This document shows positions 10,123 through 36,358 of a stretch of 41,058 nucleotides of DNA, in pieces. The stretch is from Anaerolineae bacterium (GTDB lineage: Bacteria > Chloroflexota > Anaerolineae > UBA7937 > B3-Chlor). Location: positions 1-41,058 of the forward strand of contig DATKVP010000382.1 in NCBI GenBank assembly GCA_035530015.1. The letters are read 5' to 3'. The notes below the pieces were generated by a model. That model was not told where the DNA came from. It ran no database searches and saw only the letters and a list, made by a program, of their open reading frames with translations. Numbering within the stretch: the stretch's first letter is position 1; each line of letters begins with the position of its first letter. The translations under genes and the position numbers were made by a program.

Positions 10123-10123
10123 G

Positions 10124-12068: not shown

Positions 12069-12288
12069 CATAGTCCAGCAGATCGTGGAGCGGGGAATGG
12101 AGGAGAAACAGGGCAAGCCCAATTGCTCACGCTGTGCCGATGAAGACCATTGCCTGATTGCCTTCATGGGTCCAGCGATCAAGATCAAGCCCAGCTACGT
12201 TGCAGCTCCTGGCTGTGGCCGGTTCGAGCCCAAGAGATATGATGCGGGGGAGGAGGACGATGCAGATCAAGGGTCTGAGAAAGGTTAA
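12061..12288 (+). CDS. Small Cys-containing protein with an acidic tail
   Basis: ATG preceded by gggaggagaagg. Has CSRC...HC...GC residues. No family recognised. Confidence 0.4.
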   Translation: MSNIVQQIVERGMEEKQGKPNCSRCADEDHCLIAFMGPAIKIKPSYVAAPGCGRFEPKRYDAGEEDDADQGSEKG

Positions 12289-15242: not shown

Positions 15243-15460
15243 TACGGGAGAACCTGAGTGACCCGATGAAACGGGCATTGCTGATGATCGGGGCGCTCTA
15301 CTATCTCCAAAACATCCGCTGGGATACTTACGGTGCGCTCGTCCGGCGCGGTTTAATTGTCCGGGAGGCCCGATCTAACAAGAAAGTAATCGGCCTCACG
15401 GATGAGGGCATGAAGGCGTATTGGGATACTCTCGATGAGTTGAGGGGGAGGAGACGATGA
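15227..15460 (+). repeat. Junction module type III, two copies (15227-15242 and 15445-15460)
   Basis: ggggaggagacgatga is identical in both copies. It encodes ...GRRR*, a Shine-Dalgarno and an ATGA stop/start overlap. Confidence 0.85.
15239..15460 (+). CDS. Hypothetical protein (73 aa)
   Basis: Delimited by the two type III junction modules. Confidence 0.45.
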   Translation: MIRENLSDPMKRALLMIGALYYLQNIRWDTYGALVRRGLIVREARSNKKVIGLTDEGMKAYWDTLDELRGRRR

Positions 15461-17127
15461 CACAGAGGATGGAGCTCTCACCGACTGAGATTGTGAGGTC
15501 CCGCTTTCAGACGAGGCAGGATGGATACCAGGGGGAGTCGTTCGAGGGGCTGGTGAGCTCCGTGAAACGCCACGGGCTGATCAACCCCCTGGGGGTGATC
15601 GTCAACGAGTCAAATGAGTTCGAGCTGGTGTACGGCCACCGCCGGCTGGAGGCGGCGCGCAAGGCGCAGCTCAAAACGCTGCCAGTGGACGTGATCGCCA
15701 GCCTGATCAGCACCGATGACGTGGCGGGTGAGTTGGACAAGATCCAGGAGATGGTGCTGGTAGACAACCTCTTCCACGAGGACCTGACAGCGCTGGAAGT
15801 TGCTCGGGGGCTCCAGGAGCTGATCAGACTACAGGGGCTCAGCCAGGAGCAGGTCGCCCAGGTCGTGGGGAAGAGCCAGCAATGGGTGAGCGACAAGCTG
15901 CGCCTGCTCGACCTGGCTGAGCCGGTGAAGAAGGCGGTCACCGGGCGCTCGGTAGAGGAGACGGTGGCGCGGCGGCTGGCCACACTGCCCGAGAACATGC
16001 AGGAGTCGGTCCTCGAGTATGTGAAGGGGAAGGCGTCGAGGGAAGCCAATGAGATCATCGGGGAGATCAAGGAGGCTACGGATCCTGAGTTCTGGGACCT
16101 GCCCGAAGACAAGCCGTGGGAGCCGGAGAAGATCAACGTCAAGGCCATGTTAGACGATTGCCTGGACCAGGTGCCCCCAGAGAAGAAGGGCGAGGCGCTA
16201 GTCAATCTGCAGGCACGCGGGCTCCTGAAGGGGCCGGGCCAGCAGTACGCCTATTCGATGGGTGGCTTCCCATCCGCGTGCGGGTTGAAGCACAAGAGCA
16301 TGGGCGCATGGCAGAAGGCGCAGGAGCGGACTTGCGAGCACTGTGTGTGGCAGGGAGAGCACATACATTATCAGTGCGGCCAGGAGAGGGAGACCTGTGA
16401 ATCTTGCCTCATCGAGACTGACGAGGTGAGGCTGCCGGTGCCCTGCGGGGAGACGGAGGCGGATTGCCAGGCCTGTGAGAAGGACCCGGGCTGGTGCACC
16501 GACGTGGCCTGCTACATCGAGCACTGCAAGGCGGTCTCCCGAGAGGCCGAGGCTGCGGTAGATGAGGCAGGGCTCGAGAGGGACATCGAGGCGCAAGAGG
16601 CCCTGCGGGCATTCTATGATCGGCAGACAGGAGAGGGGATCACCCGGGATCATTGGCTGGCTCAAGCCTGTGAGTATTGCGCGCTGTGGCGAGGGCCGGA
16701 GCAGCGGGATCAGTGTAACGCGGAAAAGCCGCAGCATATACAGACAGGCTTCTGGCAGAGCGAGGGGGTGACCGTGCCCCGCTGCACCGGCTTCGGGCTG
16801 AGGAATCTGGCGAGAGTGCCCGAGATCGATCAGGCGCGCTTCGAGGAGATCCTGCTCGTGGGGCTGGATGAGCTACGCCGGATGGGCAGTCTGAGGCCTC
16901 GGGGGATTTATAAGGGGGGTGAAGATGACGACTTCATCGCCACCATCAAAGAGGCTGGACTGAACAAGCGGCAGCTCGTGGCGCTCTGGATCTCCGCCAT
17001 CAACTCCCGCGTCGATGGCGTTTGGGGCGGTACGGAGAGGAGCCTGATCAACCCCATCACGGGGGAGAAGACGATATGGCTTGTGATCCCCCAACAGCCG
17101 GAGGACGATGAAGACGCAGATTCCTGA
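15457..17127 (+). CDS. ParB/Srx-like nuclease-domain protein with HTH and a Cys-rich C-terminal region
   Basis: ParB N-terminal motif ELVYGHRRLEAARKAQLKTLPVDVI. HTH segment LSQEQVAQVVGKSQQWVSDKLRLLDL. Multiple CxxC pairs after residue ~290. Confidence 0.7.
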   Translation: MTQRMELSPTEIVRSRFQTRQDGYQGESFEGLVSSVKRHGLINPLGVIVNESNEFELVYGHRRLEAARKAQLKTLPVDVIASLISTDDVAGELDKIQEMVLVDNLFHEDLTALEVARGLQELIRLQGLSQEQVAQVVGKSQQWVSDKLRLLDLAEPVKKAVTGRSVEETVARRLATLPENMQESVLEYVKGKASREANEIIGEIKEATDPEFWDLPEDKPWEPEKINVKAMLDDCLDQVPPEKKGEALVNLQARGLLKGPGQQYAYSMGGFPSACGLKHKSMGAWQKAQERTCEHCVWQGEHIHYQCGQERETCESCLIETDEVRLPVPCGETEADCQACEKDPGWCTDVACYIEHCKAVSREAEAAVDEAGLERDIEAQEALRAFYDRQTGEGITRDHWLAQACEYCALWRGPEQRDQCNAEKPQHIQTGFWQSEGVTVPRCTGFGLRNLARVPEIDQARFEEILLVGLDELRRMGSLRPRGIYKGGEDDDFIATIKEAGLNKRQLVALWISAINSRVDGVWGGTERSLINPITGEKTIWLVIPQQPEDDEDADS

Positions 17128-17952: not shown

Positions 17953-18477
17953 ATGAATGCTGATGACATCTATCGTGCTCTTCAGAACCGCCATAAGCTG
18001 CCCGAGTGGGTGCTGGTTAGGGAACTCTGTTTGGCAACCGGGGATTATCGCTGGCGTCAGCCTGTCTTAAACCCCCCACGACTCAATCGTCGCTGGCGGT
18101 GTGATGCCATGCAGAGAATTGATGCGTTCGCAATCAACTGCTATGAATCGCAGCGCTTCATGAAGGTCGCCTACGAGATCAAGATCAGTCACAGTGACTT
18201 CATTCGTGAAAAACGTGATCCCGACAAACGTCAGGGCGCTATGGAAGTCGCCGATTACTTCTATTTCGCGGCACCCCGAGGAGTGATCGCCCCTATGGAA
18301 CTGCCAACGGGCACAGGCTTGCTCGTAGTCTATGATTCGGGACGCACTGAAATCTTAGAACGAGCGCCCAGGCTACCCGCGACGCGGCTTGATTGGGCCT
18401 TCGTGGCTTCTCTGATGCGGAACGCGATGATGATGCGAAGGAAGGATCTGCCTCGAGATCGATTTGAGGACCGATGA
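17953..18477 (+). CDS. MmcB-like PD-(D/E)XK nuclease-fold protein
   Basis: RIDAFAI...VAYEIKISHSDFIREKRDPDK...ADYFYFAAP matches the D...EIK core and the fyfA motif of the MmcB family. GC is visibly lower than in the neighbours. Confidence 0.55.
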   Translation: MNADDIYRALQNRHKLPEWVLVRELCLATGDYRWRQPVLNPPRLNRRWRCDAMQRIDAFAINCYESQRFMKVAYEIKISHSDFIREKRDPDKRQGAMEVADYFYFAAPRGVIAPMELPTGTGLLVVYDSGRTEILERAPRLPATRLDWAFVASLMRNAMMMRRKDLPRDRFEDR

Positions 18478-19938: not shown

Positions 19939-20135
19939 CGGGAGCGACGTTGATTACGGCTAATGGTGAGCTGCACCTGGGGAAGCGGACCACGGCCATC
20001 GTGGAGGAATTGCTCGCCATCGCGGCCAAGATCGAGGTGCCTCGCAAGGGGAAGGTGGAGATCACCGTGGACTTCTCCAACGGCTCGCTGACGGTAGCGG
20101 TGAGAGAGGTAGGGGAGAGCAGGAGGATTGAGTGA
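19935..20135 (+). CDS. Hypothetical protein (66 aa; GTG start)
   Basis: GTG at 19935 overlaps the upstream TGA. Ends in junction module type II, copy 1. Confidence 0.35.
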   Translation: MTGATLITANGELHLGKRTTAIVEELLAIAAKIEVPRKGKVEITVDFSNGSLTVAVREVGESRRIE

Positions 20136-20539
20136 TGGACGAATGGGAACGGCAGTACCAAGCAGAGCTCGAGACATTGTTGTCAGTCGTGGCCCTGAGT
20201 GATGATTTTTGGGGGAATGTAGAGCCGAAATTCGCCGCTCAGGCGACATTTGGAGTGTATCGTCACGCAATTATGCGGTTGCCAGTGTTGCGGCAACATC
20301 TGACCCTACAGGCCGTGGATGCAAGTTGCTGGGATGGCATCAAAAGGAGATGGCTGCCTGATCGGCTCCAGCGGATTTTCATCCCGCATGTACGGTGCTT
20401 TGACATCAATGAGATCACGAGTCCGAACGGAAAGGTTACTAGATATTTGCTGCGAACGGATTATCTCACGCAGAAGGAATGGGGCGCGAAACTGAGGAGG
20501 CTAATGGCGGAGGAACATAGGGCAGAGCAGGAGGATTGA
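20132..20539 (+). CDS. Hypothetical protein (135 aa), accessory island
   Basis: Bounded by module II copies 1 and 2. Lower GC than the genome average by eye. Confidence 0.5.
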   Translation: MMDEWERQYQAELETLLSVVALSDDFWGNVEPKFAAQATFGVYRHAIMRLPVLRQHLTLQAVDASCWDGIKRRWLPDRLQRIFIPHVRCFDINEITSPNGKVTRYLLRTDYLTQKEWGAKLRRLMAEEHRAEQED

Positions 20540-22209: not shown

Positions 22210-22662
22210 ATGGCACGAGGGAAGAAGTATTCGGATGCACAGATCGAGGTCGCCCTGCAGGCGCTCATCGAGCATGACGGCAATGCAGAGGCGGCTTCCA
22301 AGCAGACGAAGATCCCCGCCCGCACGCTCAGGGATTGGCGCGGCAAAGAGTTCGCCGATGAGTTCGCCAGGCTTCGCCGGGAAAAAAGGAAGGGCTTCAT
22401 CGAGAAGGTCTGGGAGGTTGCCGGGCAGGCGCTGGAGCAACTGACGAAGAAGCTCCCTGAGATGAAGGGCAAGGACATCGCCATCACCATCGGTATCCTG
22501 GCTGATAAGGGACTGGCTGCCGGGGGCGAGGCATCGAGGAGGATCGACGTCACGAGTGCAGACAAGCCGCTGGAGGGGAGAAGTGACGACGAGCGGATTG
22601 AGCGGCTGTTCTCGATCTTTGACCAGGCAAGAGCGCGCCGAGATTCTGAGCCTAGCGACTGA
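22210..22662 (+). CDS. terS: Terminase small subunit
   Basis: The N-terminal HTH (YSDAQIEVALQALIEHDGNAEAASKQTKIPARTLRDW) and its position directly upstream of terL support the call. Confidence 0.55.
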   Translation: MARGKKYSDAQIEVALQALIEHDGNAEAASKQTKIPARTLRDWRGKEFADEFARLRREKRKGFIEKVWEVAGQALEQLTKKLPEMKGKDIAITIGILADKGLAAGGEASRRIDVTSADKPLEGRSDDERIERLFSIFDQARARRDSEPSD

Positions 22663-24079
22663 CTCTGTACTTTTCAAACTGCAATACCAGTATGACCCCT
22701 TGGCCTTCGTCCATGACTGTGTGAGATTCGCCGCCGGCGAACAGTTGGCCGAGTACCAAGAGGAGATCCTGGAGGAGCTGATCCCTCGCAAGAGGATTGC
22801 GGTGAGGGGCCCCCATGGCCTGGGCAAGACGGCGCTCGCGGCGTGGATCGTGCTCTGGGCGGTGCTCACAGCAGAGGATGTCAAAGTCCCGACCACGGCA
22901 TCGGCGTGGCGCCAGGTCACCAAGTTTCTCTGGCCGGAGATCCACAAGTGGTCTTATCGGCTGGACTGGAACCGGGTGGGCCGGGCGGCATTCAGCAGAG
23001 ACGAACTGCTCACACTCTCGCTGAAACTCTCACCAATCCGCGAGGCCTTCGGGGTGGTCTCGGACAATGCAGCTCTGATCGAGGGGGCCCATGCCCAGCG
23101 GATCGTGTACGTGTTCGATGAGGCCAAAGAGATCCCGGATCCAACCTGGGACGCAGCAGAAGGGGCGTTCGCGGGCGCTGGGGAGGATACGGGAGCAGAG
23201 GCTTACGCCTTTGCTATCTCCACCCCAGGGGCACCCGTGGGACGCTTCTATGACATCCATGCCCGGAAGCCAGGTTACGATGATTGGTGGCCCAGGCACG
23301 TCACGCTCGAGGAGGCGATCAAGGCACGGCGGATCAGCAGGGAATGGGCTGACCGCAGACGCACGCAGTGGGGGGAGAAGTCGGCGGTCTTTCTCAATCG
23401 CGTAGAAGGGGAGTTTGCCAGCTCTGAAGCGGATAGCATCATCTCCCTGAGCTGGGTGGAAGCGGCCAATGACCGCTGGCGGGAGTGGGTGGAGGCGGGG
23501 TCGCCTATGTGCCACAACGAGGATGGCACGTTGAAGCCCATGGACGTCGTGGGGGTGGACGTAGCCCGATCGGGTGAGGATCAGACCGTCCTGGCCCTGA
23601 GATACGGCCAGATCATCACTGAGATCAGGGCGTATAGCAAAGAGGACACGATGCAGACCACCGGGCGCGTGGTAGGGGTCCTTGAGGGGCATGGGGGCAA
23701 GGCCATCGTAGACGTGATCGGGATAGGCGCTGGGGTCTACGATCGTCTGAGAGAACAACAGTACGACGCGGAGCCCTTTAATGCAGCCGCGGGCTCCAAG
23801 ATCAGGGATCAAAGTGGAGAATGGGGTTTCGTGAATCAACGGGCGGAGGCCTGGTGGACGCTGAGGGAGCTCCTCAGTGACCCGGAGAGCCAGGTGGCAT
23901 TGCCGCCCGATGATCAGTTGACGGGGGACCTGACCGCACCGACGTGGAAGGCCGTGAGCGGAGGCAAGATCAGGGTGGAGGCCAAAGAGGACATCAAGAA
24001 ACGGATCGGCCGCAGCACTGACTACGGGGACGGTGTAGTGCAAGCGTTCTGGCCCGGCGCGCCCAAGGCGTACTACTAA
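22556..24079 (+). CDS. terL: Terminase large subunit (start uncertain: GTG 22556 or TTG 22619)
   Basis: Walker A-like GPHGLGKTALAAW and Walker B-like VYVFDEAKE. The nuclease domain begins VGVDVARSGEDQTVL. Confidence 0.85.
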   Translation: MQTSRWRGEVTTSGLSGCSRSLTRQERAEILSLATDSVLFKLQYQYDPLAFVHDCVRFAAGEQLAEYQEEILEELIPRKRIAVRGPHGLGKTALAAWIVLWAVLTAEDVKVPTTASAWRQVTKFLWPEIHKWSYRLDWNRVGRAAFSRDELLTLSLKLSPIREAFGVVSDNAALIEGAHAQRIVYVFDEAKEIPDPTWDAAEGAFAGAGEDTGAEAYAFAISTPGAPVGRFYDIHARKPGYDDWWPRHVTLEEAIKARRISREWADRRRTQWGEKSAVFLNRVEGEFASSEADSIISLSWVEAANDRWREWVEAGSPMCHNEDGTLKPMDVVGVDVARSGEDQTVLALRYGQIITEIRAYSKEDTMQTTGRVVGVLEGHGGKAIVDVIGIGAGVYDRLREQQYDAEPFNAAAGSKIRDQSGEWGFVNQRAEAWWTLRELLSDPESQVALPPDDQLTGDLTAPTWKAVSGGKIRVEAKEDIKKRIGRSTDYGDGVVQAFWPGAPKAYY

Positions 24080-26613: not shown

Positions 26614-27588
26614 ATGGAGATCGAGCGGAAGAGCTTCCCGTTTGAGCTGGAGGAGAAGGGCCTGGATCCGGAGGCCAGGACGATCAAGGGGTACGCTGCG
26701 ATCACGGGCAACGTAGATGATTGGGGCGACATCATCGATCGGGGCGCGTTCAAAAAGACGCTCCAGGAGCAAGGGTCCCGGGTGAAGGTGTACTACATTC
26801 ACGACTTCTGGGAGCCGATTGGCAAGCCGCTGGAGATGAAGGAGGTGCCCAGGAAGCAGCTCCCTACGCGGATCCAGGAGGCCTTCCCCGACGCCACGGG
26901 CGGGCTATTCGTGCACTTCTACATCAGCGAGACGAGCAGGGGCAACGATGCGCTGACGCTGGCCAGGGATGGTGTGCTCGACGAGATGAGCATCGGGTTC
27001 CGCTCTATCAAGGACGACGAGGAGGAGCGTGATGATGGAAGCCTGGTGCGCCACCTCAAGGAGATCTCGCTGCTGGACGTCTCCCTCGTACCGCTGGCGG
27101 CCAATGCGGGGGCGCTGGTGACGGACGTAAAGCTGGCGGAGATAGCCCAGGAGCTCCAGAAGCGGATGGGGTCCATGGGCAGAGATGTGGCCCTGGAGAA
27201 GCTGGCCGGCCTCCTCGCGGCCGAAGAGAAGGTCGAGGAGACGGAGGATTACATCGAGATCCCGGTGCAGGATGCGGGCGATTTCGTGGATGACAGCTTC
27301 CGCACCATCACTCTGAGCGAGGATGAAGGGATCCAGGAGGTGATCGGCAAACTGAAGAGCGACCCCGACGGGCCCACCCACGTCCAGAAGTACCGCTTCG
27401 ACAAGGAGAAGGGCTGGACGATGGCGAAGGCCAAGGCCTGGGTGGAAGAGCACGAGGAAGACGACAAGGCGCTGGCCGCGGAAGTACCGCCGGCTGAGGA
27501 CACCGGCGACGCGGTGAAGGCGCTGGCGAGGGCCAAGCTGCAGGAGGCCCTCATGCGAGGAGAGGAGTTGGAAGCGCGAATGCGCTAG
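26614..27588 (+). CDS. HK97-family prohead protease with an acidic/coiled C-terminal extension (scaffold-like)
   Basis: IKGYAAITGNVDDWGDIIDRGAFKKTL...YYIHD...PIGKP...GLFVHFYISETSRGNDALTLARDGVLDEMSIGF. Confidence 0.8.
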   Translation: MEIERKSFPFELEEKGLDPEARTIKGYAAITGNVDDWGDIIDRGAFKKTLQEQGSRVKVYYIHDFWEPIGKPLEMKEVPRKQLPTRIQEAFPDATGGLFVHFYISETSRGNDALTLARDGVLDEMSIGFRSIKDDEEERDDGSLVRHLKEISLLDVSLVPLAANAGALVTDVKLAEIAQELQKRMGSMGRDVALEKLAGLLAAEEKVEETEDYIEIPVQDAGDFVDDSFRTITLSEDEGIQEVIGKLKSDPDGPTHVQKYRFDKEKGWTMAKAKAWVEEHEEDDKALAAEVPPAEDTGDAVKALARAKLQEALMRGEELEARMR

Positions 27589-27722: not shown

Positions 27723-29096
27723 GTGGGAAACGAAATCGATCCTAGAGTGCAGAAGATCCTGGAAGAGGCTCATGCCGTCAATCAGAAGGGCATTGAGCTC
27801 TATACGGCTATCGTGGCAGGGGACCGCGGCATCGAGGACATGCCACAGGCCGACGCCTGGCTCGACGAAGCGAAGAAGAAGGCGGACGGCGCGCACAGGT
27901 TTGAGGGCGGGCTGGAGCTGAACGCCTATCTGAACGACGGCGAAGGCTCCCTCACGGCGGGGACCGTGGAGGTCTTGACACCCGGCAAGATCAAGGGTGG
28001 CAATGGACACGGAGCCGGCGATGGAGATCGTTACTGGCGCGACAGTGGGCATTTCGGGATGGCCGTGCTGGCCGCTGGGGACCTGGACCTGGAGCGCAAG
28101 CTGCGGAGCCAGGGCCTGGTGAACGAGGAGGACATCGCTCACCTGTACGAGCGGCAGAAGGAGACCAAGACCCTCATGCAGGAGGGGTTGGGGGCCTCCG
28201 GTGGCTTCCTGGTGGAAGTGCCGTATCTGGCCGAGCTGTTCATGAAGGCGTGGGAGGGCTCGATTGTGCGCCGTCGCGCTCGGGTGATCCCGATGGGGAC
28301 GCGGCAGATTCAGATGCCAACCATCGACCAGACGATCACCCCGGCCAACCAGAAGTCGGCCTTCTTCGGCGGCGTCAACTACCAATGGATCGAGGAGGGC
28401 GAGAGCAAGCCCGAATTGGAGTTGAAGTTCAAGCTGGTCACCCTCACGGTGCACGAGCTGGCGGGCTACCTGCCGGTGACGAACAACCTGATCGAGGACT
28501 CGGCCATCAGTATCAACGGCATCTTGAACACGATGCTGCCTGCAAGTATGGCTGACGCCGAAGATTGGTGGTTTATCAACGGCAATGGCGCGGGGGTTCC
28601 GCAGGGGATCATTTCGGCCCCCTGCACCATCCAGGTTGCCAGGGCCGGGGCGACGGCCATTGCCTGGGCGGACATCAAGGCCATGGTCCACGCCTTCCAG
28701 CCCGGCGCTAACGGTGTCTGGATAGCGCACATCTGCTGCAAGGAAGAGATCATGGAGTTGCAGGACGCGGCCGGAAACGCGCTGTGGCTTGCCAACATCG
28801 TGAGCGGTATGCCTGAGCGGCTGATGGGCTACCCGATCATCTGGACTGAGAAGACCCCGAACCTGGGGACCAAGGGAGACATCGGCTTATACGATCTCTC
28901 CTACTACCTGCTCGGCGATCGCCGGGGGCCGACGTTGGAGATGAGCAAGGAGTACCTGTTCAGATACAACCAGACCGCCTTCCGGATCTCCGAAAGGGTG
29001 GATGGGCAGCCGTGGCTTTCGGCTGACGTGGACCTGCGGCCGACAGGTGCGGTGAGCATTTCGCCGTTCGTCACGCTCAATACCTACGGTGCGTAG
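27723..29096 (+). CDS. Major capsid protein, HK97 fold, with an N-terminal delta-like coiled segment
   Basis: GTG start preceded by ggaggtg. Has GASGGFLVEVPYLAELF...RRRARVIPMGTRQIQMPT... typical of the HK97 MCP family. Confidence 0.85.
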   Translation: MGNEIDPRVQKILEEAHAVNQKGIELYTAIVAGDRGIEDMPQADAWLDEAKKKADGAHRFEGGLELNAYLNDGEGSLTAGTVEVLTPGKIKGGNGHGAGDGDRYWRDSGHFGMAVLAAGDLDLERKLRSQGLVNEEDIAHLYERQKETKTLMQEGLGASGGFLVEVPYLAELFMKAWEGSIVRRRARVIPMGTRQIQMPTIDQTITPANQKSAFFGGVNYQWIEEGESKPELELKFKLVTLTVHELAGYLPVTNNLIEDSAISINGILNTMLPASMADAEDWWFINGNGAGVPQGIISAPCTIQVARAGATAIAWADIKAMVHAFQPGANGVWIAHICCKEEIMELQDAAGNALWLANIVSGMPERLMGYPIIWTEKTPNLGTKGDIGLYDLSYYLLGDRRGPTLEMSKEYLFRYNQTAFRISERVDGQPWLSADVDLRPTGAVSISPFVTLNTYGA

Positions 29097-29103
29097 ACAA
29101 TCG

Positions 29104-29127
29104 GGGGAGGGGTGAAAGCCCCTCCCC
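29104..29127 (+). promoter_or_regulatory. Perfect 9-bp GC hairpin just after the capsid gene (attenuator or mRNA-stability element); no U-tract
   Basis: GGGGAGGGG-tgaaag-CCCCTCCCC starts 8 nt after the MCP stop codon. Confidence 0.5.
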
Positions 29128-29141
29128 AGCAGGAGGCCAAT

Positions 29142-29603
29142 ATGGAGAGAGCACTGTACGAACTGGACAGGTTCGACAATGACGTGACGGCGAGCTATTT
29201 CGAGCCTCAGCTCGTAGCCGCAGGCGCGGAGCCGACTGGAGCATGGCTGAGTATGCTACCCTATGACAGGGCGATGTTCATGCTCATGGCCGGCGACTGG
29301 ACCAATATCGGGGACCAGTTGGACGCGCAGGTGTACCAGGCCACGACCAACGCTGGAGCTGGCGCGAAGGTCATCGCCGGCAAGGCGATCACGACGTACA
29401 CCAGCCTGGCGACGGACGAGGACAATCTCTGGTACATCCACATCGATGTGTCAGAGCTGGACGTGGACCTCTACTTTGCCTACATCCAGCTTCAGATCAC
29501 CGTTTCGGCAAACGATTCGGTCTATATCGCCGCGCTGTGTGAGCGGGAGAGCCGCGTGTTCGAGCCCGTTCCTGTAATCAACGTGACTGAGATTATCGCA
29601 TAG
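29142..29603 (+). CDS. Head accessory protein, tandem paralog 1 (possible decoration protein)
   Basis: ATG at 29142 preceded by caggagg (the tracked ORF starts at GTG 29112, inside the hairpin). Paralogous to 29617..30111. Confidence 0.45.
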   Translation: MERALYELDRFDNDVTASYFEPQLVAAGAEPTGAWLSMLPYDRAMFMLMAGDWTNIGDQLDAQVYQATTNAGAGAKVIAGKAITTYTSLATDEDNLWYIHIDVSELDVDLYFAYIQLQITVSANDSVYIAALCERESRVFEPVPVINVTEIIA

Positions 29604-29616
29604 CCAGGAGGGCGAA

Positions 29617-30111
29617 ATGCCAGAAGACAGCTTGATCGAGAGAGACCGGCACGATGGGGACGCGGTGGCTTGTTTGGTGGAGCCGCAGATCCTCGCCGCC
29701 GGCGTGACCACGACCCCAACGGTGACCATGAGGGGCTATGACCGCGTTGTGTTCTCCATCCTGGGCGGCGCGGCCAATGACGCTAACGCCACGCTGGATG
29801 TGCTGGTGCAGCAATGCACGCAGGCGAACGACGCGGGCGCCGACGACAAGAACCTTGCGGGCCTGTATGGCAGCAAGGCGATCACCCAGGTGACGGCTGG
29901 AGCGGACTTCGCCACTCTCAATCAGAAGTGGCTGATCGAGGTGAGTACCGAGGAAATGGACGTCGATGCCTACTTCGACTTCCTCCTGCTGGAGATCACC
30001 GTGAGCGCGGACGACACCTGGTACATTGCAGTCGAGGCCCAGCGCAGCGGGGCCGATTACGAGCCAGTGGCAATCACGAACATCACTCAGGCGATAGGCA
30101 CGACCGCATAA
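29617..30111 (+). CDS. Head accessory protein, tandem paralog 2
   Basis: Shares with paralog 1 the pattern YDR..F.....G.......LD..V.Q.T......D.......WLIEVS.EEMDVD.YF....L.ITVSA.D. Confidence 0.45.
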   Translation: MPEDSLIERDRHDGDAVACLVEPQILAAGVTTTPTVTMRGYDRVVFSILGGAANDANATLDVLVQQCTQANDAGADDKNLAGLYGSKAITQVTAGADFATLNQKWLIEVSTEEMDVDAYFDFLLLEITVSADDTWYIAVEAQRSGADYEPVAITNITQAIGTTA

Positions 30112-30500: not shown

Positions 30501-31277
30501 ATGCGCGTCTTAGTGGCGACGCCGATGGTGAGAGGCGCTGTCTACCGTCAGGCTCTGGATAGCGCCTTGAGCCTGAAGTGGCCGGAGCGGCTGGATTACT
30601 TCGCACCTGTGGGCGGCGACGTGGCGGGGGATCCGCACCAGAACGTCACCGATAAGTACAACGTGGCGCGAGAGGTGATGCTGGCCGGCCCCTACGAGGC
30701 GATGCTCACGCTGGACAGTGACATCATTCCGCCGCCGGATGCCCTGATGAAGCTGGCCGCGGCAGATGCAGATGTGGCGTATGGCCTGTACGTGATGGGC
30801 CGATCGTGGCCGATCTGGAGCGCCCACGACGAAGTGGACATGACGAAGGCAACGCCCCTGAGCAAGGTGCGGACCAAGGCGGAGGCTGCCTGGGGCAAGG
30901 TCGTGGAGGTGAAGGGCATGGGCCACGGCTGCACACTGTTCCGGAGACACGTCTTGGAGCAGCTAGAATGGCGGCTGGTGGACACCCTGGACGTGTGCAG
31001 CGATTGGATCATAGGCCTGGATTGCGTCGAACAGGGATTCAGCCAGGTGTGCGATATGACGGTGATCTGCGGGCACATACGCACCGCACCGATGCTCAAT
31101 GTGATGTGGCCCGACATTGAGATGGTGAACTGTTACCGTCGGGCCGCACTCCCGCCGGTGCCACTCGGCGTAGCGGGCGCGGAAAAGACCTATACCAGGG
31201 CGATGATGGCCAAGACGCTAGAGGGGTATGAGTACGACAGGGACCGCAATCAGGTTGGTATCCATCCCGGTTCCTGA
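30501..31277 (+). CDS. GT-A fold glycosyltransferase (GT2-like)
   Basis: N-terminal RVLVATPM strand, DxD motif in TLDSDIIPPPDAL, and GMGHGCTLFRRHVLEQL resembling the GT2 acceptor loop. Confidence 0.55.
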   Translation: MRVLVATPMVRGAVYRQALDSALSLKWPERLDYFAPVGGDVAGDPHQNVTDKYNVAREVMLAGPYEAMLTLDSDIIPPPDALMKLAAADADVAYGLYVMGRSWPIWSAHDEVDMTKATPLSKVRTKAEAAWGKVVEVKGMGHGCTLFRRHVLEQLEWRLVDTLDVCSDWIIGLDCVEQGFSQVCDMTVICGHIRTAPMLNVMWPDIEMVNCYRRAALPPVPLGVAGAEKTYTRAMMAKTLEGYEYDRDRNQVGIHPGS

Positions 31278-31525: not shown

Positions 31526-32410
31526 ATGCCATACAACAAGACAAAGTGGGGAGGGGAGCGCGCCATCCCGGCCATGCCGGCGGCGGCCCTGAACAACATC
31601 GAGGATGCGCTGGAGCTGGGCTATCACGTGCTCACTGTAGGGGCCTGTGCTCAGATGATGGAGATCTTCGGCGATGTGGTGGCCTTCTGGCCCTTCTTCG
31701 AGAATGCCAGGAACAGGGCGCAGGATTTCGGCCCCAACGGCTATCACCTCTATACCGATATAGGTGCCGCCGAGGACCTGGACGCCTGGGATACAGCGCC
31801 CGAGCTCCAGGGTGTGATGAGGGCGTATGTATTCAACGGCACCGATGAGTACCTGATGGCCTTGGATCAGGACCTGTTCACAGTCGTGGCTACCAACGCG
31901 TTCAGCATGGGCATGTGGGTGAAGATGACCACTGCCGCGGACAATTGCTTCCTCTCTAAGTGGGATGAGACAAACCTGGCCGAGGCGAGGGAGTGGCTGT
32001 TCTGCACGGATAACACTGGCTACATCACGATGATCCTCTACGACGAGACGAACACCGCCCAGATCGGCAGGGAGTATCAAACGGCCCTGGGGACAGAGGG
32101 CTGGCATTACATCGTGGGCGTCTACGACGGGGGTACTGATGCTGCGAACATCGCCATCTATCTCGATGGGCTAAAGGTGGATGATGCGGATGTGGCCGAC
32201 GATGCGGGCTTCGCCAGCATGGTGAATCAGGCCACGCCGGTACGGTGCGGCTCATACGAAGACGCTGCTGGTGATGAGGAATACCTGTTTGACGGTCGCG
32301 GGTGGGGGCCGTTCTTCACCCGCAAGGAATTGAGCGCGGATGAAGTCTGGAACCTGTATCAGCTCGGGCGGGCGGTATTGCACCTGCCGCTGTCTGCGGG
32401 GATGCCATAG
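31526..32410 (+). CDS. LamG (Laminin_G_3 / concanavalin-like lectin) domain protein
   Basis: FNGTDEYLMA...AFSMGMWVKM...FLSKWD...WHYIVGVYDG...IAIYLDGLKV...FDGRGWGPFFTRKELSADEVWNLY matches the LamG jelly-roll pattern. Confidence 0.7.
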   Translation: MPYNKTKWGGERAIPAMPAAALNNIEDALELGYHVLTVGACAQMMEIFGDVVAFWPFFENARNRAQDFGPNGYHLYTDIGAAEDLDAWDTAPELQGVMRAYVFNGTDEYLMALDQDLFTVVATNAFSMGMWVKMTTAADNCFLSKWDETNLAEAREWLFCTDNTGYITMILYDETNTAQIGREYQTALGTEGWHYIVGVYDGGTDAANIAIYLDGLKVDDADVADDAGFASMVNQATPVRCGSYEDAAGDEEYLFDGRGWGPFFTRKELSADEVWNLYQLGRAVLHLPLSAGMP

Positions 32411-32643
32411 TGAAAGGGGAGGAGAAGGTGGCACCGACAGGATCAGTCTCTGTGAACATCCGCAGGAGTAAGTGGAACTGGAAGGGCAAACTGGTCACGG
32501 CTTCATTGAAGCTGCCGAGGGTTGGGATCAGATTCGCCGGCTGGCTCTGGGATGAGTTGAAGCCACTATCGATCCAGACAGGGAGCCAACCCCCTCATTA
32601 CATGACGTGGAGTGAAGTGATCACGAGGGGAACCGTGCAATGA
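32410..32643 (+). CDS. Hypothetical protein (77 aa; GTG start)
   Basis: ORF with moderate GC3. The start is uncertain (alternative GTG at 32428). Confidence 0.3.
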   Translation: MKGEEKVAPTGSVSVNIRRSKWNWKGKLVTASLKLPRVGIRFAGWLWDELKPLSIQTGSQPPHYMTWSEVITRGTVQ

Positions 32644-33803
32644 AGTACGTCGAGGATACCTTCATAGGGGCGGATGGAACGGACCTGAGCGCGCACGCGC
32701 CGGACATCGACCGGCCAGGGGGCGGGTACGCGGAGATCGCCGGCGATTGGGAGATCGCCTCGAACGCCGCGGGGGTGACGTCGGTGGCCAACGCCAGGGT
32801 GGTGATCCTGACAGATCTGGCCGACGGGCGCTTCAAGGTGGACGCCTCGATCGTGGCCGCGACTAAGGGGGCGTTCCTGGTATTCCGCAGCAATGCCGGA
32901 TGCACCAACTACTGGCTGGCGGGGTTGGACGATACAGCGCAGCAGGTGCAGCTCCTGGTGGCCTCGGGAGGGGCCCCGGCGGTGCAGGCCTTTCGCGCTT
33001 ATGCCGTGGACGAGGCCGAGACCTACGAGATCAAGGTGGTGTGCCGGGCAGATGAGATCACGGTCTACATCGACGATGCGGTCCAGATCCGCCACACCAG
33101 CGCCACCCACGAGACGGAGGAGCACGCCGGCCTATACTCCGATACGAACGTGGATGTGGCCTTCGATGATCTGGTGGCTGATGAGAGGCCGACGTGTCAC
33201 TACTGCACCACGGCGGACGTGAAGAGCCGGCTGGGGGCGCAGTTTACCTCGGGGACGACCTACGACGAGGAGCTGGAGGCGGACATCGAGGAGGCGTCCC
33301 GCCTGATCGACCTGGAGAAGGGGTGGGAGGAGTGCCACTACTCCGCCTCGGACCTGGCCATGGTGACCCGGTATTATGATGGGCTGGGCGGGACCGAGCA
33401 GGAGATCGATCGCTTCCTGGACGACGCGGCTTTCGCGGTGGCCGTGGACGACGACGGTGACGGGGTGTATACGGCCTGGGTGAGGAATACCGATTACATC
33501 ACCTGGCCCTACAATGTGGAGTACATCACGGAGCTCTTCCTGGCCACAGGATCCACGGTCAGCTTCACGGTGGCGCAGCGGTCCGTGCAGGTGACGGGCA
33601 GGTTGGGGGCGTATAGCGAGCCGCCGGCGGTGGTCAGGAAGGCGGCGGTGATCATGGTGGCCAAGGCGTACAAGCGCGGGATGCAGATGTTCCAGGACAC
33701 GGGGGCCATCGTAGAGCTGGGGCAGTTGAAGTACGTGCTGGCCATCGATCCGGAGGTGGAGAAGATCCTGAGCGTGCTGCCCAGGAGGGTCAACTATGGC
33801 TGA
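32640..33803 (+). CDS. Fusion of a lectin-like beta-sandwich module and a head-tail adaptor (gp6-like connector)
   Basis: The N-terminal half shares VxDTFxxAxGxxLxxHxPDxD...FR with the tail-tip protein. The C-terminal half starts YCTTADVKSRLG...YDEELEADIEEASRLID, typical of connector/adaptor proteins. Confidence 0.5.
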   Translation: MKYVEDTFIGADGTDLSAHAPDIDRPGGGYAEIAGDWEIASNAAGVTSVANARVVILTDLADGRFKVDASIVAATKGAFLVFRSNAGCTNYWLAGLDDTAQQVQLLVASGGAPAVQAFRAYAVDEAETYEIKVVCRADEITVYIDDAVQIRHTSATHETEEHAGLYSDTNVDVAFDDLVADERPTCHYCTTADVKSRLGAQFTSGTTYDEELEADIEEASRLIDLEKGWEECHYSASDLAMVTRYYDGLGGTEQEIDRFLDDAAFAVAVDDDGDGVYTAWVRNTDYITWPYNVEYITELFLATGSTVSFTVAQRSVQVTGRLGAYSEPPAVVRKAAVIMVAKAYKRGMQMFQDTGAIVELGQLKYVLAIDPEVEKILSVLPRRVNYG

Positions 33804-34308
33804 GCAGCCCCTGATCATCGAGGTGGACGGTTTGGATGAGCTCCAGGAGGCGCTGAAGGAGTTCGTTGACGACTGGCAGCCCATCGCCAACCGGGCCCTG
33901 ACGCCAGGATTGGCGATCCTGGTGAGCGCCGTCAAGAAAGGCGCCCGATGGGATACCGGGACGGCACGGGCCAGGGTGGGTTCGGAGATCACCAGGACAG
34001 CGGGTTCGGAGATTATCGGAAAGGTTGGCATAAGCGGTAGCGACGCTACGGAAGTCCCATATGGACCCTACGCACTGGAGTATGGCCGGCTGCCGGGGCG
34101 GATGCCACCTCCCGATCGGCTGGAGGAATGGGCTGGCCGGCACGGGATGGTGGGAGCGGGGTTTGCTATCGCCAGGGCGATCGCGGCTCGAGGGGTGAAG
34201 GCGCCCCACACCATGAGCAAGGTGGCGAAGGCCAAGGCCGGGGAAGTGGTGAAGAAGTTCGAGGAGGGGATCGTGAGAGAGCTGCGGAGGTTGAAACTGA
34301 AGGAATGA
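33796..34308 (+). CDS. HK97 gp10-family head-tail joining protein
   Basis: AVKKGARWDTGTARARV...YALEYG matches the gp10 family pattern (P.DTG.L...EfG). Confidence 0.55.
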   Translation: MAEQPLIIEVDGLDELQEALKEFVDDWQPIANRALTPGLAILVSAVKKGARWDTGTARARVGSEITRTAGSEIIGKVGISGSDATEVPYGPYALEYGRLPGRMPPPDRLEEWAGRHGMVGAGFAIARAIAARGVKAPHTMSKVAKAKAGEVVKKFEEGIVRELRRLKLKE

Positions 34309-34865
34309 CCTGCATAGTAGGGTTGGCGGAAAACAACACGGTATACATGGGCGCGGACTCTGGATCGGGATCCAGCGGGGATTGGGACATGAGGATCAGC
34401 GCAGTTCCCAAGCTGTTCCGCTCAGGGCCTTTCCTCATTGGCTATACCAGCTCGTGGAGGATGGGACAGATATTGCAGCACCATCTCCACATGGAGGAAT
34501 TGGTATTGCCTGTGAGCGGATCCGATGTGCAGGAGTTCATGGTGTGCACATTCATTGAGAAAGTACGGGAAGCCCTCAAGACGTTCGCATACGCGACCAA
34601 AGAGCATAATGAGGAGACCGGCGGACAGTTTCTGGTAGGTTGCTTTGGGCATCTGTTCCACATCGAGAGCGACTATCAAGTGAACGAGGCGGCGGATGGC
34701 ATGGACGCCTGTGGATGCGCTGAGAAGTTTGCTCTCGGGGCATTGTGGTCAAGTCGTGCAGAAAAACCGAGAGAACGAATAGCAAAAGCTCTGGACGCGG
34801 CTGCATACTTCAGCGGCGGGGTGCGACCACCGATGATAATCGAATCCGTGGATGATGAACGATGA
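34305..34865 (+). CDS. Proteasome beta / HslV-like N-terminal nucleophile (Ntn) hydrolase
   Basis: Starts MTCIVGL, so Thr follows the initiator Met. GADS places Asp at position 17 counted from Thr1, with Lys at about position 35. Late motifs are ACGCAEKFALGAL and YFSGGV. The ATG overlaps the upstream stop, and GC is lower than in the neighbours. Confidence 0.6.
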   Translation: MTCIVGLAENNTVYMGADSGSGSSGDWDMRISAVPKLFRSGPFLIGYTSSWRMGQILQHHLHMEELVLPVSGSDVQEFMVCTFIEKVREALKTFAYATKEHNEETGGQFLVGCFGHLFHIESDYQVNEAADGMDACGCAEKFALGALWSSRAEKPRERIAKALDAAAYFSGGVRPPMIIESVDDER

Positions 34866-35311
34866 GCCTACCTGCGATTCTGACGGCTAGTGCAGCGCTG
34901 GAGAATGCCAACCTGGCGGCGTTGGGGATCAAACACGCCTTCGACACGCCGCCGGAGGCGCTGACGGCCCTGCCCGTGGCGGTGCGCTTCGCGGAGGGGA
35001 CGGCGCAGATGCACGCCAGCCGCAGCATGGGCAGGTATAACATCTGGAACTTTAAGATCGAGGTGCATTGGCCTCGAGGGGTGATCTGGGAGGCCGTGGC
35101 GCAGTGCTTTCCCACGATCGAGGCGTATCAGACTCTGTATAGCGCCAACTTGAGCATCAGCGCGAGCTGCGACGTGAGCGGCTTCAGGGAGCCCGCCTGC
35201 GAGGGTCCGGTGGTGCTGAGATACTCGCCCATCGATGCGACGGAGACCATCGGGGTGATCTTCTACCTTTGGGCAAAGGAAATCCTGGACGACATAACAG
35301 TAGCATTGTGA
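34862..35311 (+). CDS. Tail completion/terminator-like protein (assigned by position)
   Basis: 149-aa ORF between the neck genes and the tail tube gene. No strong motif. Confidence 0.35.
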   Translation: MSLPAILTASAALENANLAALGIKHAFDTPPEALTALPVAVRFAEGTAQMHASRSMGRYNIWNFKIEVHWPRGVIWEAVAQCFPTIEAYQTLYSANLSISASCDVSGFREPACEGPVVLRYSPIDATETIGVIFYLWAKEILDDITVAL

Positions 35312-35320
35312 GATGAGACT

Positions 35321-36358
35321 ATGCCAGCAGTAAAGGGAATCACAGACCTGCGGCAGATCCAGATCTGCTTCCAAACGAACTGCGCGACGCCAGGGACGGT
35401 TACCGCGCGCCTGATAGGGACGTGCGGGATCGATCGGGAGACGGGACGAGTGCTCCCGACGAACCCCATCGGCTTGATGTCGAAGAACATCATAGGCCGG
35501 GCTTATGACACCTACTACTCCGGAGTGGGCCCCCTGGCGACAGGGGAGGATGGTCTGACGTTCCAGCAGATCATTTGGTGGCTGTCCATGGGGACTGTGG
35601 GGGGCGTGGTGCCCGTACCGGCAGCCCCCGTCTATACCTGGACGTTCGCGCCGGACTTGGACGATGGGGACCTGCCGGACGTGGCTCACCTGATCTACGG
35701 GGACAACGCGGCGGAGTGGGAGGGGACCTGCGGCTTCGGCACGCAGACCAAGATCTCCGCGGCCTTCAAGGCGCCCTGGCAGATCGAGATGGATACGATC
35801 TGGCAGAACTGGGACAACGCGGGGGTGGCGTTCGAGACCATCGCTTACCCGACGCCGCTGGACACGATCCTGGGGCAGATGACGACCTTCGCGCTGGATA
35901 CGACCTGCCTGTTCGGGGCCACGCCGACGGTGAGGGAGTGCGCGCTGATCGATTGGACGTTGACCATCCCTGGCTTCCACCCGAAATATTTCCAGGATGG
36001 AACGATGTACTACAACTGTTACGGCCTGGCCTCGAGGGCGCTGAGCTTCGATTTTACATTGGAGTTCGACGATTTGCTGACGAAGGCGATCGTGTGGGAT
36101 GCGTACAGGGACGGGACGCCGCTGTACGTGCAGCTCGTCGCCACCGGCGGGGTGATCCCTGGGGATAGCGGGACGAACTACAGCGTGACGATCAATATGT
36201 GCCTGGAGATCAAGGATGCGAATCCGCTGGACACGCGGGATGGGAATGACATCCAGAAGTTCACAGCGGAGACAGTGTACGACGTGGACTGCGCGGATTG
36301 CGTGGAGTGGGAGATCATCGTGGTGAACGGGGAATCGACCTTGCCGGCGTGCACGTGA
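35321..36358 (+). CDS. Major tail (tube) protein (assigned by position)
   Basis: 345-aa ORF immediately upstream of the G/GT chaperone pair and the tape measure gene. Confidence 0.45.
   Translation: MPAVKGITDLRQIQICFQTNCATPGTVTARLIGTCGIDRETGRVLPTNPIGLMSKNIIGRAYDTYYSGVGPLATGEDGLTFQQIIWWLSMGTVGGVVPVPAAPVYTWTFAPDLDDGDLPDVAHLIYGDNAAEWEGTCGFGTQTKISAAFKAPWQIEMDTIWQNWDNAGVAFETIAYPTPLDTILGQMTTFALDTTCLFGATPTVRECALIDWTLTIPGFHPKYFQDGTMYYNCYGLASRALSFDFTLEFDDLLTKAIVWDAYRDGTPLYVQLVATGGVIPGDSGTNYSVTINMCLEIKDANPLDTRDGNDIQKFTAETVYDVDCADCVEWEIIVVNGESTLPACT

Follow-up and report, generated by a model that had tools for sequence, protein, structure and literature searches.

The stretch of DNA analysed here, called the window in the following, comprises 41,058 nucleotides of a contig assigned to an Anaerolineae bacterium (DATKVP010000382.1). 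On its plus strand, at 34305-34865, lies an ORF for a protein of 186 aa with the N-terminus MTCIVGLAENNTVYMGADSGS, in agreement with the earlier note on this DNA, which had described a 186-aa ORF opening with Met-Thr-Cys. It is annotated as the gene of a proteasome-like Ntn hydrolase (HslV/BPH-type, probably of the 'AAH' group), based on the ORF and its sequence, PHROG 1040, an AF2 model, Foldseek searches and residue conservation. A longer in-frame ORF begins at 34128. However, M/V/L-T-C is found at residue 1 in almost all of 86 phage-locus homologs and in most cellular homologs, and the alignments begin at residue 1 in nearly all of the best 150 library representatives. Therefore, 34305 and not 34128 is the correct start.

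The upstream neighbor at 33796-34308 (+) is an HK97 gp10-like / Neck1 (tail completion) gene, identified by Pfam PF04883 (E 0.0017, below the curated cut-off), by PHROG 5 'tail completion or Neck1' (E 2e-10) and by homologs in five related phages (L181-L185). Downstream, at 34862-35311 (+), follows a gene for a 149-aa protein without a PHROG or Pfam match. Its AF2 model (alignment A2; pLDDT 83.3) retrieved lambda gpU (3fzb, E 5.7e-5, TM 0.56-0.62) and further phage terminators in Foldseek, and the gene is annotated as a tail terminator with a lambda gpU-like fold. The gp10-like neck gene had been recognized from the sequence before, whereas the gene downstream, then called 'tail completion', is a gpU-type terminator by fold. 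The peptidase gene is joined to both neighbors by ATGA overlaps on the plus strand, a coupling that had also been noticed earlier. At 34305-34308 its start overlaps with the stop of the gp10-like gene and at 34862-34865 its stop overlaps with the start of the terminator gene.

The lower GC content compared to the neighbors, pointed out before, is evident from the numbers. The gene has a GC of 0.542 compared to a gene mean of 0.608 (z = -2.4) and a GC3 of 0.626 compared to 0.777, which is the second lowest among 38 genes; in the neighboring genes, GC3 ranges from 0.72 to 0.88. No promoter or terminator framing the gene was found in the 3.5 kb scanned, where one promoter-like and three terminator-like matches did not exceed the shuffled expectation. 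A canonical Peptidase_S78 prohead protease is encoded at 26614-27588, so that the protein is indeed a second, mechanistically different protease-like enzyme of this phage. A gene for an AAA+ unfoldase, including HslU, is not encoded in the window.

Family and predicted fold of the peptidase

Single-sequence searches of Pfam, NCBIfam, PDB sequences and PADLOC gave no match for the ORF, and the informative results came solely from PHROGs, the family profile and the fold search. The protein matches PHROG 1040 'peptidase HslV family' over residues 1-185 (E 3.4e-15, 57.4 bits). Compared to PDB sequences, the family profile identified HslV as best match (1.1e-6) and the BPH protein Cm-BPH over its full length (1.3e-5), with Thr1, Asp17, Lys33 and the G-S-G segment in register. 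Pfam PF00227 was reached by only 5 of 34 family members. At E<=1e-30, about 2,900 clusters (50% identity) belong to the family, and it has at least 546 matches in IMG/VR. The identical protein occurs on 15 contigs from several samples.

The AF2 model has a pLDDT of 93.1 and the topology S1-S2...H1-H2...H3-H4 (element order E-E...E-E-H-H-E...E-H-H-E), which is an alpha-beta-beta-alpha sandwich with the helix pairs H1/H2 and H3/H4. Helix H2 spans residues 75-93, the last strand lies at 178-183 and a helix H5 is absent from the model. A Foldseek search of the PDB gave 1,060 matches at E<=1e-3, led by BPH (5ovs, TM 0.79, E 4e-11) and followed by HslV, 20S beta and Anbu. Both types of search proposed in the earlier note, by profile HMM and by structure, thus recovered the Ntn family. 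The start MTCIVG recalls the MCGIVG start of GlmS-type Cys1 Ntn amidotransferases. Nevertheless, a class II glutamine amidotransferase was rejected, since every strong fold match is of the proteasome type.

The catalytic residues are highly conserved among 261 distinct relatives. Thr2, which corresponds to the mature Thr1, is Thr in 99% and Ser in 1% of them, and Asp18, Lys36 and the oxyanion Gly46 are conserved in 99% each; they represent the Asp17, Lys33 and Gly47-oxyanion residues of T1-type Ntn hydrolases. Counted without Met1, Asp18 is position 17 and Lys36 position 35, the values read from the sequence before. The lysine is found at 35 instead of 33 because of a 2-residue insertion at 25-26, which has no counterpart in 95-98% of the relatives. 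PHROG 1040, the fold and the conservation establish the fold and the catalytic residues of a proteasome/HslV-type Ntn hydrolase, as had been proposed, and the Thr1/Asp17/Lys33 triad is present in the aligned homologs. The two C-terminal motifs mentioned in the earlier note, ACGCAEKFALGAL and YFSGGV, are located at 135-147 and 168-173. A propeptide is absent, as nearly all of the 86 phage-locus homologs open with M-T-C. Cys3 was rejected as nucleophile, since 4% of the relatives have Ala at this position and BPH, with the same Thr1-Cys2, is labelled by epoxomicin on Thr1 (Fuchs et al., 2018, PMC5777263).

Other positions are distinct from those of known proteasomal proteins. The position of the proteasomal Ser129 (Ser124 in HslV, Ser139 in BPH) is occupied by Cys138, and across the family by Cys in 53%, Ser in 40% and Ala in 4%. 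The proteasomal G-x-A-G-x-x-A-D segment is replaced by an invariant signature of the family's own, G-Y-T-S-S-F-R-M-G-Q-L-L. In addition, residues ~94-108 form a pore loop with three Glu, modelled as a hairpin of ~15 residues with strands at 98-100 and 103-105.

Relation to BPH, AAH and HslV

The best structural match is BPH, the Betaproteobacteria proteasome homolog (5OVS/5OVT/5OVU; Fuchs et al., 2018, PMC5777263), which is characterized by a tetradecameric assembly and a long, highly acidic pore loop. BPH also starts with M-T-C; removal of its Met was detected by mass spectrometry and its Thr1 was labelled by epoxomicin, but purified BPH, the closest relative with a solved structure, was inactive on model substrates (PMC5777263). 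Both proteins share the start without propeptide, the Thr1/Asp17/Lys triad and an extended loop with three Glu after helix 2, and for both neither an unfoldase partner nor a substrate is known. Judging from the family, removal of Met1, ring assembly and proteolytic activity may be expected for the phage protein as well. However, the identity to BPH is only 18-20% and the profile E value no better than that given above. The family described here carries a signature of its own (GYTSSFRMGQLL), either Cys or Ser where BPH has Ser139, and a shorter and less acidic loop, with three Glu compared to five consecutive Asp/Glu in Cm-BPH. Furthermore, BPH is not recorded in phages (Table 1 of PMC8665760).

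Phage-borne 'group I' proteasome homologs, termed AAH, CPH and PPH, were catalogued by Fuchs, Alva and Lupas (2021, PMC8665760), who found no co-occurring AAA+ protein for them. The peptidase is a new member of a family already catalogued there and as PHROG 1040, and the novelty implied in the earlier note was overstated. Based on taxonomic distribution and architecture, it belongs most probably to the phage-spread AAH group. The occurrence of the family in alpha-proteobacteria, Actinobacteria, Firmicutes and many phages points to this group, for which such a distribution has been described. The model shows a compact group I subunit without insertions or S12/H5, and the lack of a conserved genomic context and of an AAA+ partner is shared with AAH, CPH and PPH. 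In contrast, many family members are found in Polyangiaceae/Myxococcota, a group not highlighted in PMC8665760. The representatives of AAH (WP_035979212) and CPH (WP_008185288) were not among the accessions in 20 family clusters. Identity with PPH was rejected, as PPH has about 140 residues and lacks helix H2. A literature search on phage HslV-like proteins found genome annotations and the two Fuchs papers, but no experimental work.

With HslV (ClpQ) the protein has in common the fold and size, the residues Asp17 and Lys33, the G-S-G segment and, presumably, a Met removal that exposes Thr1. It could therefore be imagined as a surrogate HslV which docks on the HslU (ClpY) ATPase of the host and redirects ATP-dependent degradation during infection. 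The best profile match in PDB sequences, the label 'HslVU peptidase subunit' given to family members in many databases, the comparable size and the missing propeptide fit such a role. However, the curated models for HslV and the proteasome in Pfam and NCBIfam all miss the peptidase, an HslU is missing in the window, and the structure is nearer to BPH, which has lost the residues of the HslU interface (PMC5777263). The pore-loop hairpin is also longer than the short linker of HslV. Moreover, the family is frequent among Actinobacteria, whereas Table 1 of PMC8665760 has no HslV entry for this phylum, and the authors of that paper did not find co-occurrence with AAA+ proteins. A function as surrogate HslV is for these reasons improbable.

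A probable accessory cassette between the neck and terminator genes

In the five related phages L181-L185, the gp10-like and terminator genes are directly adjacent and in most cases overlap by the same 4 nt; the peptidase gene is absent. Their flanking genes are 45-67% (adaptor), 44-65% (gp10-like) and 66-77% (terminator) identical to those in the window. Collinearity of the flanking DNA with L183 extends as far as the boundary of the cassette, where ...AAGGAC TGATGAGCC... in L183 is opposed to ...AAGGA[ATGACC... in the window. The insertion can be mapped with single-nucleotide precision. The left boundary is given by the sequence and the junction in L183, the right boundary by the sequence and the junctions in L181-L185, and both flanking genes lie outside of the cassette. 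Insertion and deviant composition together identify the gene as an accessory cassette at the neck-terminator junction.

Phage 'morons' (Juhala/Hendrix et al.), a term defined for HK97/lambda-like phages, are accessory genes inserted between neighboring late genes. The peptidase gene resembles them in separating two genes that lie next to each other in related phages, in its deviant composition and in a function unrelated to that of its neighbors. In contrast to morons, it lacks its own promoter and terminator, and at either end a start/stop overlap of 4 nt splices it into the operon. It would therefore rely on transcription of the late operon and is probably translationally coupled.

The location of homologs varies considerably. 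The closest homolog in IMG/VR (L019, 59% identity) lies between TerL and portal, although the head genes of this phage are related to those in the window (portal 48%, protease 57% identity). In L039 the homolog follows Neck1 and terminator, in L020 it precedes the connector, in L094 it lies between a minor tail protein and the tail chaperone, and in L024 two genes before the tape measure. Placement among early or nucleotide-metabolism genes was found in GVE3, D'Alembert, a Moorella phage and a B. pseudomallei prophage, with cultured phages among them. Copies with 45-50% identity are located outside of prophages on bacterial chromosomes. Matching genomes belong to Azospirillaceae, Rhodospirillaceae, Frankia, Actinomadura, Actinoplanes and Firmicutes, besides the many Polyangiaceae/Myxococcota. 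Synteny in bacterial genomes is kept within lineages (Polyangiaceae, Azospirillaceae, Frankia) but not across them, and a shared bacterial neighbor gene was rejected.

Terminase, portal or S78 protease is the immediate neighbor in about a third of 76 non-redundant viral loci, and a head gene lies within three genes in 40 of all 85 viral loci. The latter association is inflated, because short contigs are called viral by means of these genes. In the 44 loci that extend over 8 or more genes in both directions, a head gene is found within three genes in only 11, which roughly equals our own estimate for random placement, and in 23 there is none within 8 genes. As the signal fades in these loci, an association with the head and packaging module was rejected.

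These data bear on the idea of a genuine morphogenetic protease, which would trim the tape measure, the tail terminator or another tail protein, or be packaged in the virion. The coupling on both sides within the neck-tail operon, the homologs in neck and tail modules of L039, L094 and L024, and the frequent immediate head-gene neighbors are in its favor. Nevertheless, five relatives with flanks 44-77% identical have no gene at this junction, the placement varies even between phages with related head genes, and orthologs reside among early genes or on chromosomes outside of prophages. Together with the nearly random distance to head genes, this makes a morphogenetic protease improbable. The weight that had been placed on the neck-tail position finds no support, and the suggested processing of tail or tape-measure proteins is unlikely, because relatives sharing the flanks lack the gene and homologs are located elsewhere.

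Equally improbable is a non-proteolytic function, in which the Ntn site would serve for a connectase-like transpeptidation or ligation, or for the hydrolysis of an amide in a glycan or small molecule. Among relatives with long contexts, the three closest are located in glycosyltransferase, methyltransferase, sulfotransferase or ATP-grasp clusters; L036, L086 and L088 adjoin a CgtA-like glycosyltransferase and L039 an aminotransferase. Such a function would also fit the family's own signature in place of the proteasomal one, the protease activity of BPH not being demonstrated (PMC5777263), and connectase, which has the same fold and is able to act as a ligase. However, glycosyltransferases are not recurrent immediate neighbors in the 76 loci, and a link to glycosylation genes was rejected as a general feature. 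The S3/S4 insertion of the connectase type is absent, both helix pairs are present, and ring-forming proteases account for all of the best structural matches. Finally, a neutral or decaying passenger gene without current function in this phage, as might be suspected from its foreign base composition, its absence from relatives, two substituted near-invariant glycines (G95A, G139A) and two lineage-specific insertions, is very improbable, since the frame is intact, every catalytic residue is kept in a confident model, the identical protein recurs on its 15 contigs, and the clade sharing the insertions has many intact members (55-64% identity).

Proposed function of the peptidase

We consider it likely that the gene encodes a stand-alone proteasome-like Thr1 peptidase, related to HslV and BPH within 'group I', and that this accessory cassette is expressed with the late operon. 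Met1 would be removed by the host methionine aminopeptidase, and Thr1, through its freed amino group and its hydroxyl, would then provide nucleophile and base, assisted by Lys33 (Lys36 here) and Asp17 (Asp18 here), while Gly46 would form the oxyanion hole. The subunits are probably stacked as a two-ring barrel of 6- or 7-fold symmetry with the active sites inside, and the BPH-like pore loop may line its entrance. The cassette appears to have been inserted exactly at the translationally coupled Neck1/terminator junction. As neither a promoter nor a terminator belongs to the cassette itself, the peptidase would be made together with the late virion proteins, while neck and tail building would proceed without it. 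The site of action is most likely the cytoplasm of the infected cell, and the targets would be peptides or unfolded proteins from either the host or the phage. Both this accessory role in the cytoplasm and the absence of a partner beyond the window are presumed, and proteolysis itself is an assumption, because purified BPH is inactive on model substrates. The finding represents neither a new kind of system nor support for a new step in tail assembly.

Proteasome-like enzymes without a known partner are present in thousands of phage and bacterial lineages, and a function has been shown for none of them. This window offers a precisely bounded cassette, together with sister phages without the gene, in a small temperate siphophage. 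A pair of phages with and without the gene would permit an isogenic comparison to learn what such enzymes do.

It was also observed that the gene recurs in late structural operons of several unrelated phages, which could mean more than neutral insertion. Here it separates Neck1 from the terminator; in other phages it separates terminase from portal or portal from prohead protease, or lies beside tail genes. That late-operon insertion of a partner-less proteasome-like peptidase is a recurrent, selected strategy of phages and not neutral cargo is a speculative reading to which we assign a low probability. If true, the enzyme would be made in step with the virion proteins. During assembly it might remove structural proteins that have assembled wrongly, or attack a defence or stress factor of the host; carriage in the particle and delivery into the next cell are conceivable as well.

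Start, fold and active site of the peptidase

The peptidase ORF (34305-34865, +) encodes a protein of 186 aa with the N-terminus MTCIVGLAENNTVYMGADSGS, as the earlier note had proposed. The coupling to both flanking genes claimed there can be read at each end: the ATG and the stop codon of the upstream ORF (33796-34308) overlap as ATGA, and the peptidase stop and the ATG of ORF 34862-35311 likewise. M/V/L-T-C forms the N-terminus from residue 1 in nearly every one of the 86 phage-locus homologs and in the majority of cellular ones, and, of the top 150 representatives in the library, nearly all align from residue 1. For this reason 34305 was taken as the true start, and a longer in-frame ORF from 34128 was rejected. 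Every motif named earlier was found: G-A-D-S with Asp18, Lys36, ACGCAEKFALGAL at 135-147 and YFSGGV at 168-173. A propeptide is absent.

The single sequence had no match in Pfam, NCBIfam or PDB sequences. In PHROGs it belongs to phrog_1040, 'peptidase HslV family' (E 3.4e-15, residues 1-185). A homolog search returned 359 proteins, several with the JGI name 'HslVU peptidase subunit', and tblastn gave 72 records from phages that carry the annotation 'peptidase HslV family', 'Ntn hydrolase-like' or 'proteasome subunit', with Moorella phage MTATph1 as the top match (44.6% identity). The AlphaFold model (34 homologs as input; pLDDT 93.1, pTM 0.89) arranges its strands and helices in the order known from proteasome beta subunits. 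Profile and structure searches had been suggested, and a Foldseek search of the PDB yielded 1,060 matches (E≤1e-3). The Betaproteobacteria proteasome homolog (BPH) of Thiobacillus ranks first (E 4e-11, TM 0.79), ahead of HslV from several organisms, the BPH of Cupriavidus, 20S beta subunits and Anbu. Phage homologs matched at TM 0.9 among predicted viral structures, and the family profile matched HslV (1.1e-6) and Cm-BPH (1.3e-5, full length) in PDB sequences.

Profile alignments equate Thr2 with Thr1, Asp18 with Asp17, Lys36 with Lys33 and G137-C138 with G-S of the G-S-G segment. Over 261 distinct relatives, Thr2 (Ser 1%), Asp18, Lys36 and Gly46 are each conserved in 99%, and the Ser129 equivalent Cys138 is Cys in 53% and Ser in 40%. 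Two residues are inserted ahead of Lys36; in the 95-98% of relatives without this insertion, the Lys is exactly mature residue 33. Cys3 (95%, Ala 4%) is not essential; the M-T-C start also occurs in Cm-BPH. The family has its own invariant signature at 46-57 (G-Y-T-S-S-F-R-M-G-Q-L-L), and two near-invariant glycines are replaced in the peptidase (G95A, G139A). Loss of the fold or of the triad had been named as what would speak against a proteasome/HslV-like Ntn hydrolase. Neither was seen, so the molecular call, which phrog_1040 also bears out, stands.

Insertion at the neck-terminator junction

The peptidase ORF lies in the late operon of an HK97-like siphophage. It is preceded by genes for the terminase large subunit (22556-24079), a portal protein (PF04860) with a C-terminal Mu F-like domain (PF04233; 24079-26172, +), a Peptidase_S78 prohead protease (26614-27588), the major capsid protein (27723-29096), a head-tail adaptor of 387 aa (32640-33803, +) and an HK97 gp10-like/Neck1 protein (33796-34308). 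Genes for a 149-aa protein (34862-35311), a 345-aa protein (35321-36358) and tape-measure-like proteins (from 36805) follow. The S78 enzyme beside the Ntn hydrolase agrees with the claim of a second, mechanistically different protease-like enzyme. Family searches with the 149-aa protein gave no match. Its relatives were aligned and its structure predicted (pLDDT 83.3), and the model matches lambda gpU (E 5.7e-5, TM 0.56-0.62) and several other phage tail terminators; the peptidase ORF therefore lies between the Neck1 and tail-terminator genes.

Tail-terminator homologs on long contigs show 60-87% identity, and five such loci of related phages (L181-L185) were taken for comparison. In all five, the terminator homolog comes straight after the gp10-like gene, in most cases overlapping it by the same 4 nt; homologs of the 345-aa, ~80-aa and tape-measure proteins are next in line. 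No peptidase match was found anywhere in the five loci by tblastn. Identities to the window are 45-67% for the adaptor, 44-65% for gp10-like, 66-77% for the terminator, 45-52% for the 345-aa protein and 40-62% for the distal tape-measure-like protein. At the nucleotide level, the L183 junction reads ...GAGCTGCGGAGGTTGAAACTGAAGGAC TGATGAGCCTGCCCGCG, and that of the window reads ...GAGCTGCGGAGGTTGAAACTGAAGGA, then a cassette from ATGACCTGC ... to GATGAACG, then ATGAGCCTACCTGCG. This comparison places a gene-sized cassette exactly at a coupled gene junction. Its composition is foreign to the window: GC is below that of the neighbours, as noted before (0.542 against a mean of 0.608 over 38 genes, z = -2.4), and GC3 is 0.626 against 0.777, second lowest in the window, with 0.72-0.88 in the adjoining genes. 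Promoter or terminator signals for the cassette were none above chance.

The position of the peptidase is an insertion and not a feature of the module, which is the main new result. The enzyme class that the earlier note had read from the raw sequence is upheld by fold and triad; the weight it had given to the neck-tail position is not, with five sister phages lacking the gene at this junction and the position varying across phages. The modest value of the cassette is that of a natural insertion with clear bounds; together with the sister phages that lack it, it could serve for a first functional test of proteasome homologs from phages.

The window is a temperate phage, with a gene set for temperate lifestyle and DNA handling: a large serine recombinase, an SbcC/Rad50-like ATPase (zinc hook) and SbcD-like phosphoesterase, a Gp3-like recombination directionality factor and a ParB-like protein (5179-6693, -; 7861-11856, +; 12158-13234, +; 15457-17127, +). 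Two further genes (17953-18477 and 20132-20539, +) match the peptidase gene in their low GC3 (0.583 and 0.596) and may be foreign insertions as well. The portal fusion recurs in several related loci, e.g., L019, and in a B. pseudomallei prophage (L014). Directly after the capsid gene, tandem paralogs (29112-29603 and 29617-30111, +), both matching phrog_28483 (unknown function), may be duplicated decoration or head-completion proteins. Head and neck genes are separated by two unusual genes (30501-31277 and 31526-32410, +). The product of the first, 258 aa, weakly matches a glycosyltransferase PHROG (E 0.0046); that of the second, 294 aa, has a Laminin_G_3/ConA-like lectin domain. The PHROG match of the adaptor is limited to residues 178-347 of 387, and the 207-aa L181 adaptor matches only residues 183-387, so that an N-terminal domain of ~180 aa was gained or lost in this lineage. 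A 692-aa protein (2487-4565, +) has an Amidase_2 (N-acetylmuramoyl-L-alanine amidase) domain at its C-terminus and is possibly a lysin associated with the tail or else a large endolysin.

Proposed action and comparison with BPH and HslV

Among characterised proteins, BPH comes nearest. Its 14 subunits assemble into a double ring whose inner pore loop is acidic, and it has no partner unfoldase; loss of the initiator Met was seen by mass spectrometry, Thr1 is labelled by epoxomicin, and on model substrates no activity was found (PMC5777263). By analogy, methionine aminopeptidase would expose Thr1 of the peptidase, and Thr1, Lys33 and Asp17 would perform proteasome-type catalysis. Two stacked rings of subunits would enclose the active sites, and inside the infected cell the enzyme would act on peptides or unfolded proteins with no ATPase dedicated to it; an AAA+ unfoldase gene was not found among the window's encoded proteins. 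The peptidase would be made late, because it depends on late-operon transcription. It is dispensable for neck and tail assembly, because the sister phages lack it. We consider it probable that the gene encodes such a stand-alone Thr1 peptidase, inserted, late-expressed and not needed for neck and tail assembly.

A surrogate HslV working with the HslU of the host, to which the HslV matches would correspond, is unlikely. In the model, a loop of ~15 residues after helix 2, with a small hairpin and three Glu, resembles BPH more than HslV, where it is a short linker. A non-proteolytic Ntn enzyme is likewise improbable.

Family and positions in other phages

In the survey by Fuchs, Alva and Lupas (2021), which added 22 proteasome homologs, 'group I' takes in HslV, BPH, AAH, CPH, PPH, RPC and DPH; for these proteins the authors found no genomic context, co-occurrence or AAA+ partner (PMC8665760). 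The distribution of the family, a compact build that lacks H5, and the helix 2 seen in the model all fit AAH, to which the peptidase probably belongs. PPH, termed 'the first true viral member', has ~140 residues and lacks helix 2 (PMC8665760); this identity was excluded, helix 2 being present in the model. The family is already known and large, and this kind of gene already catalogued. An exhaustive profile search (clusters at 50% identity) gave 8,612 matches at E≤1e-3, 6,242 at ≤1e-10 and 2,894 at ≤1e-30, and IMG/VR holds at least 546 confirmed viral stretches with the family. Species-representative genomes with it belong to Polyangiaceae/Myxococcota, alpha-proteobacteria (Azospirillaceae, Rhodospirillaceae, Rhizobiales), Actinobacteria (Frankia, Parafrankia, Actinomadura, Actinoplanes, Amycolatopsis), Firmicutes and Chloroflexi.

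The position varies even among phages with related head genes. In L019, whose portal and prohead protease are 48% and 57% identical to those of the window, the homolog (59% identical, the closest in IMG/VR among the matches listed) lies between terminase and portal, genes which abut in the window. Elsewhere it follows Neck1 and the terminator and precedes an aminotransferase (L039), stands between a minor tail protein and the tail chaperone (L094) or between capsid gene and gp6-like connector (L020), lies two genes upstream of the tape measure (L024), or adjoins DNA methylase/RtcB or ParB/helicase-like genes (L035, L038). It is found beside thymidylate synthase and DHFR in Geobacillus virus E3, among small early genes in Psychrobacter phage D'Alembert and a Moorella phage, after DnaB and DUF968 in a B. 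pseudomallei prophage and, in a Pseudomonas prophage where it is listed as 'proteasome subunit beta', three genes ahead of the terminase.

A morphogenetic protease, suggested by neighbouring head genes, is likewise improbable. Over 76 non-redundant viral loci, with 149 immediate neighbours in all, the families that recur next to the gene are the terminase large subunit (~14), portal (8) and S78 protease (4), hallmark genes towards which short viral contigs are biased. Among 44 loci with at least eight genes per side, a head/packaging gene lies within three genes in 11 and none within eight in 23, by estimate close to random placement. With this bias and near-random placement, a dedicated tie to any morphogenetic step is not convincing. 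A decaying passenger gene, for which the replaced glycines might speak, is very improbable with an intact triad and fold.

On the Polyangiaceae chromosome (L016/L017), the homolog has an overlap with the stop codon of a PlsC-type acyltransferase gene (PF01553), and two HSP20 genes in divergent orientation come next. The order is kept within Polyangiaceae only and bears some resemblance to the stress-regulated operons that have been reported for BPH. The closest relatives with long contexts (L007/L009, P0010; L010/L011, P0005; L012, P0021) lie in clusters of glycosyltransferases, methyltransferases, sulfotransferases, an epimerase and an ATP-grasp enzyme. A CgtA-like glycosyltransferase is the next gene in L036, L086 and L088, as is an aminotransferase in L039; such a neighbourhood is not general across the 76 loci. 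One immediate neighbour in the viral loci (alignment A3) has an Acb2/Tad1 hairpin domain (E 8.9e-23) of the anti-CBASS/Thoeris sponge family, so that in this phage the peptidase gene lies beside a counter-defence gene.
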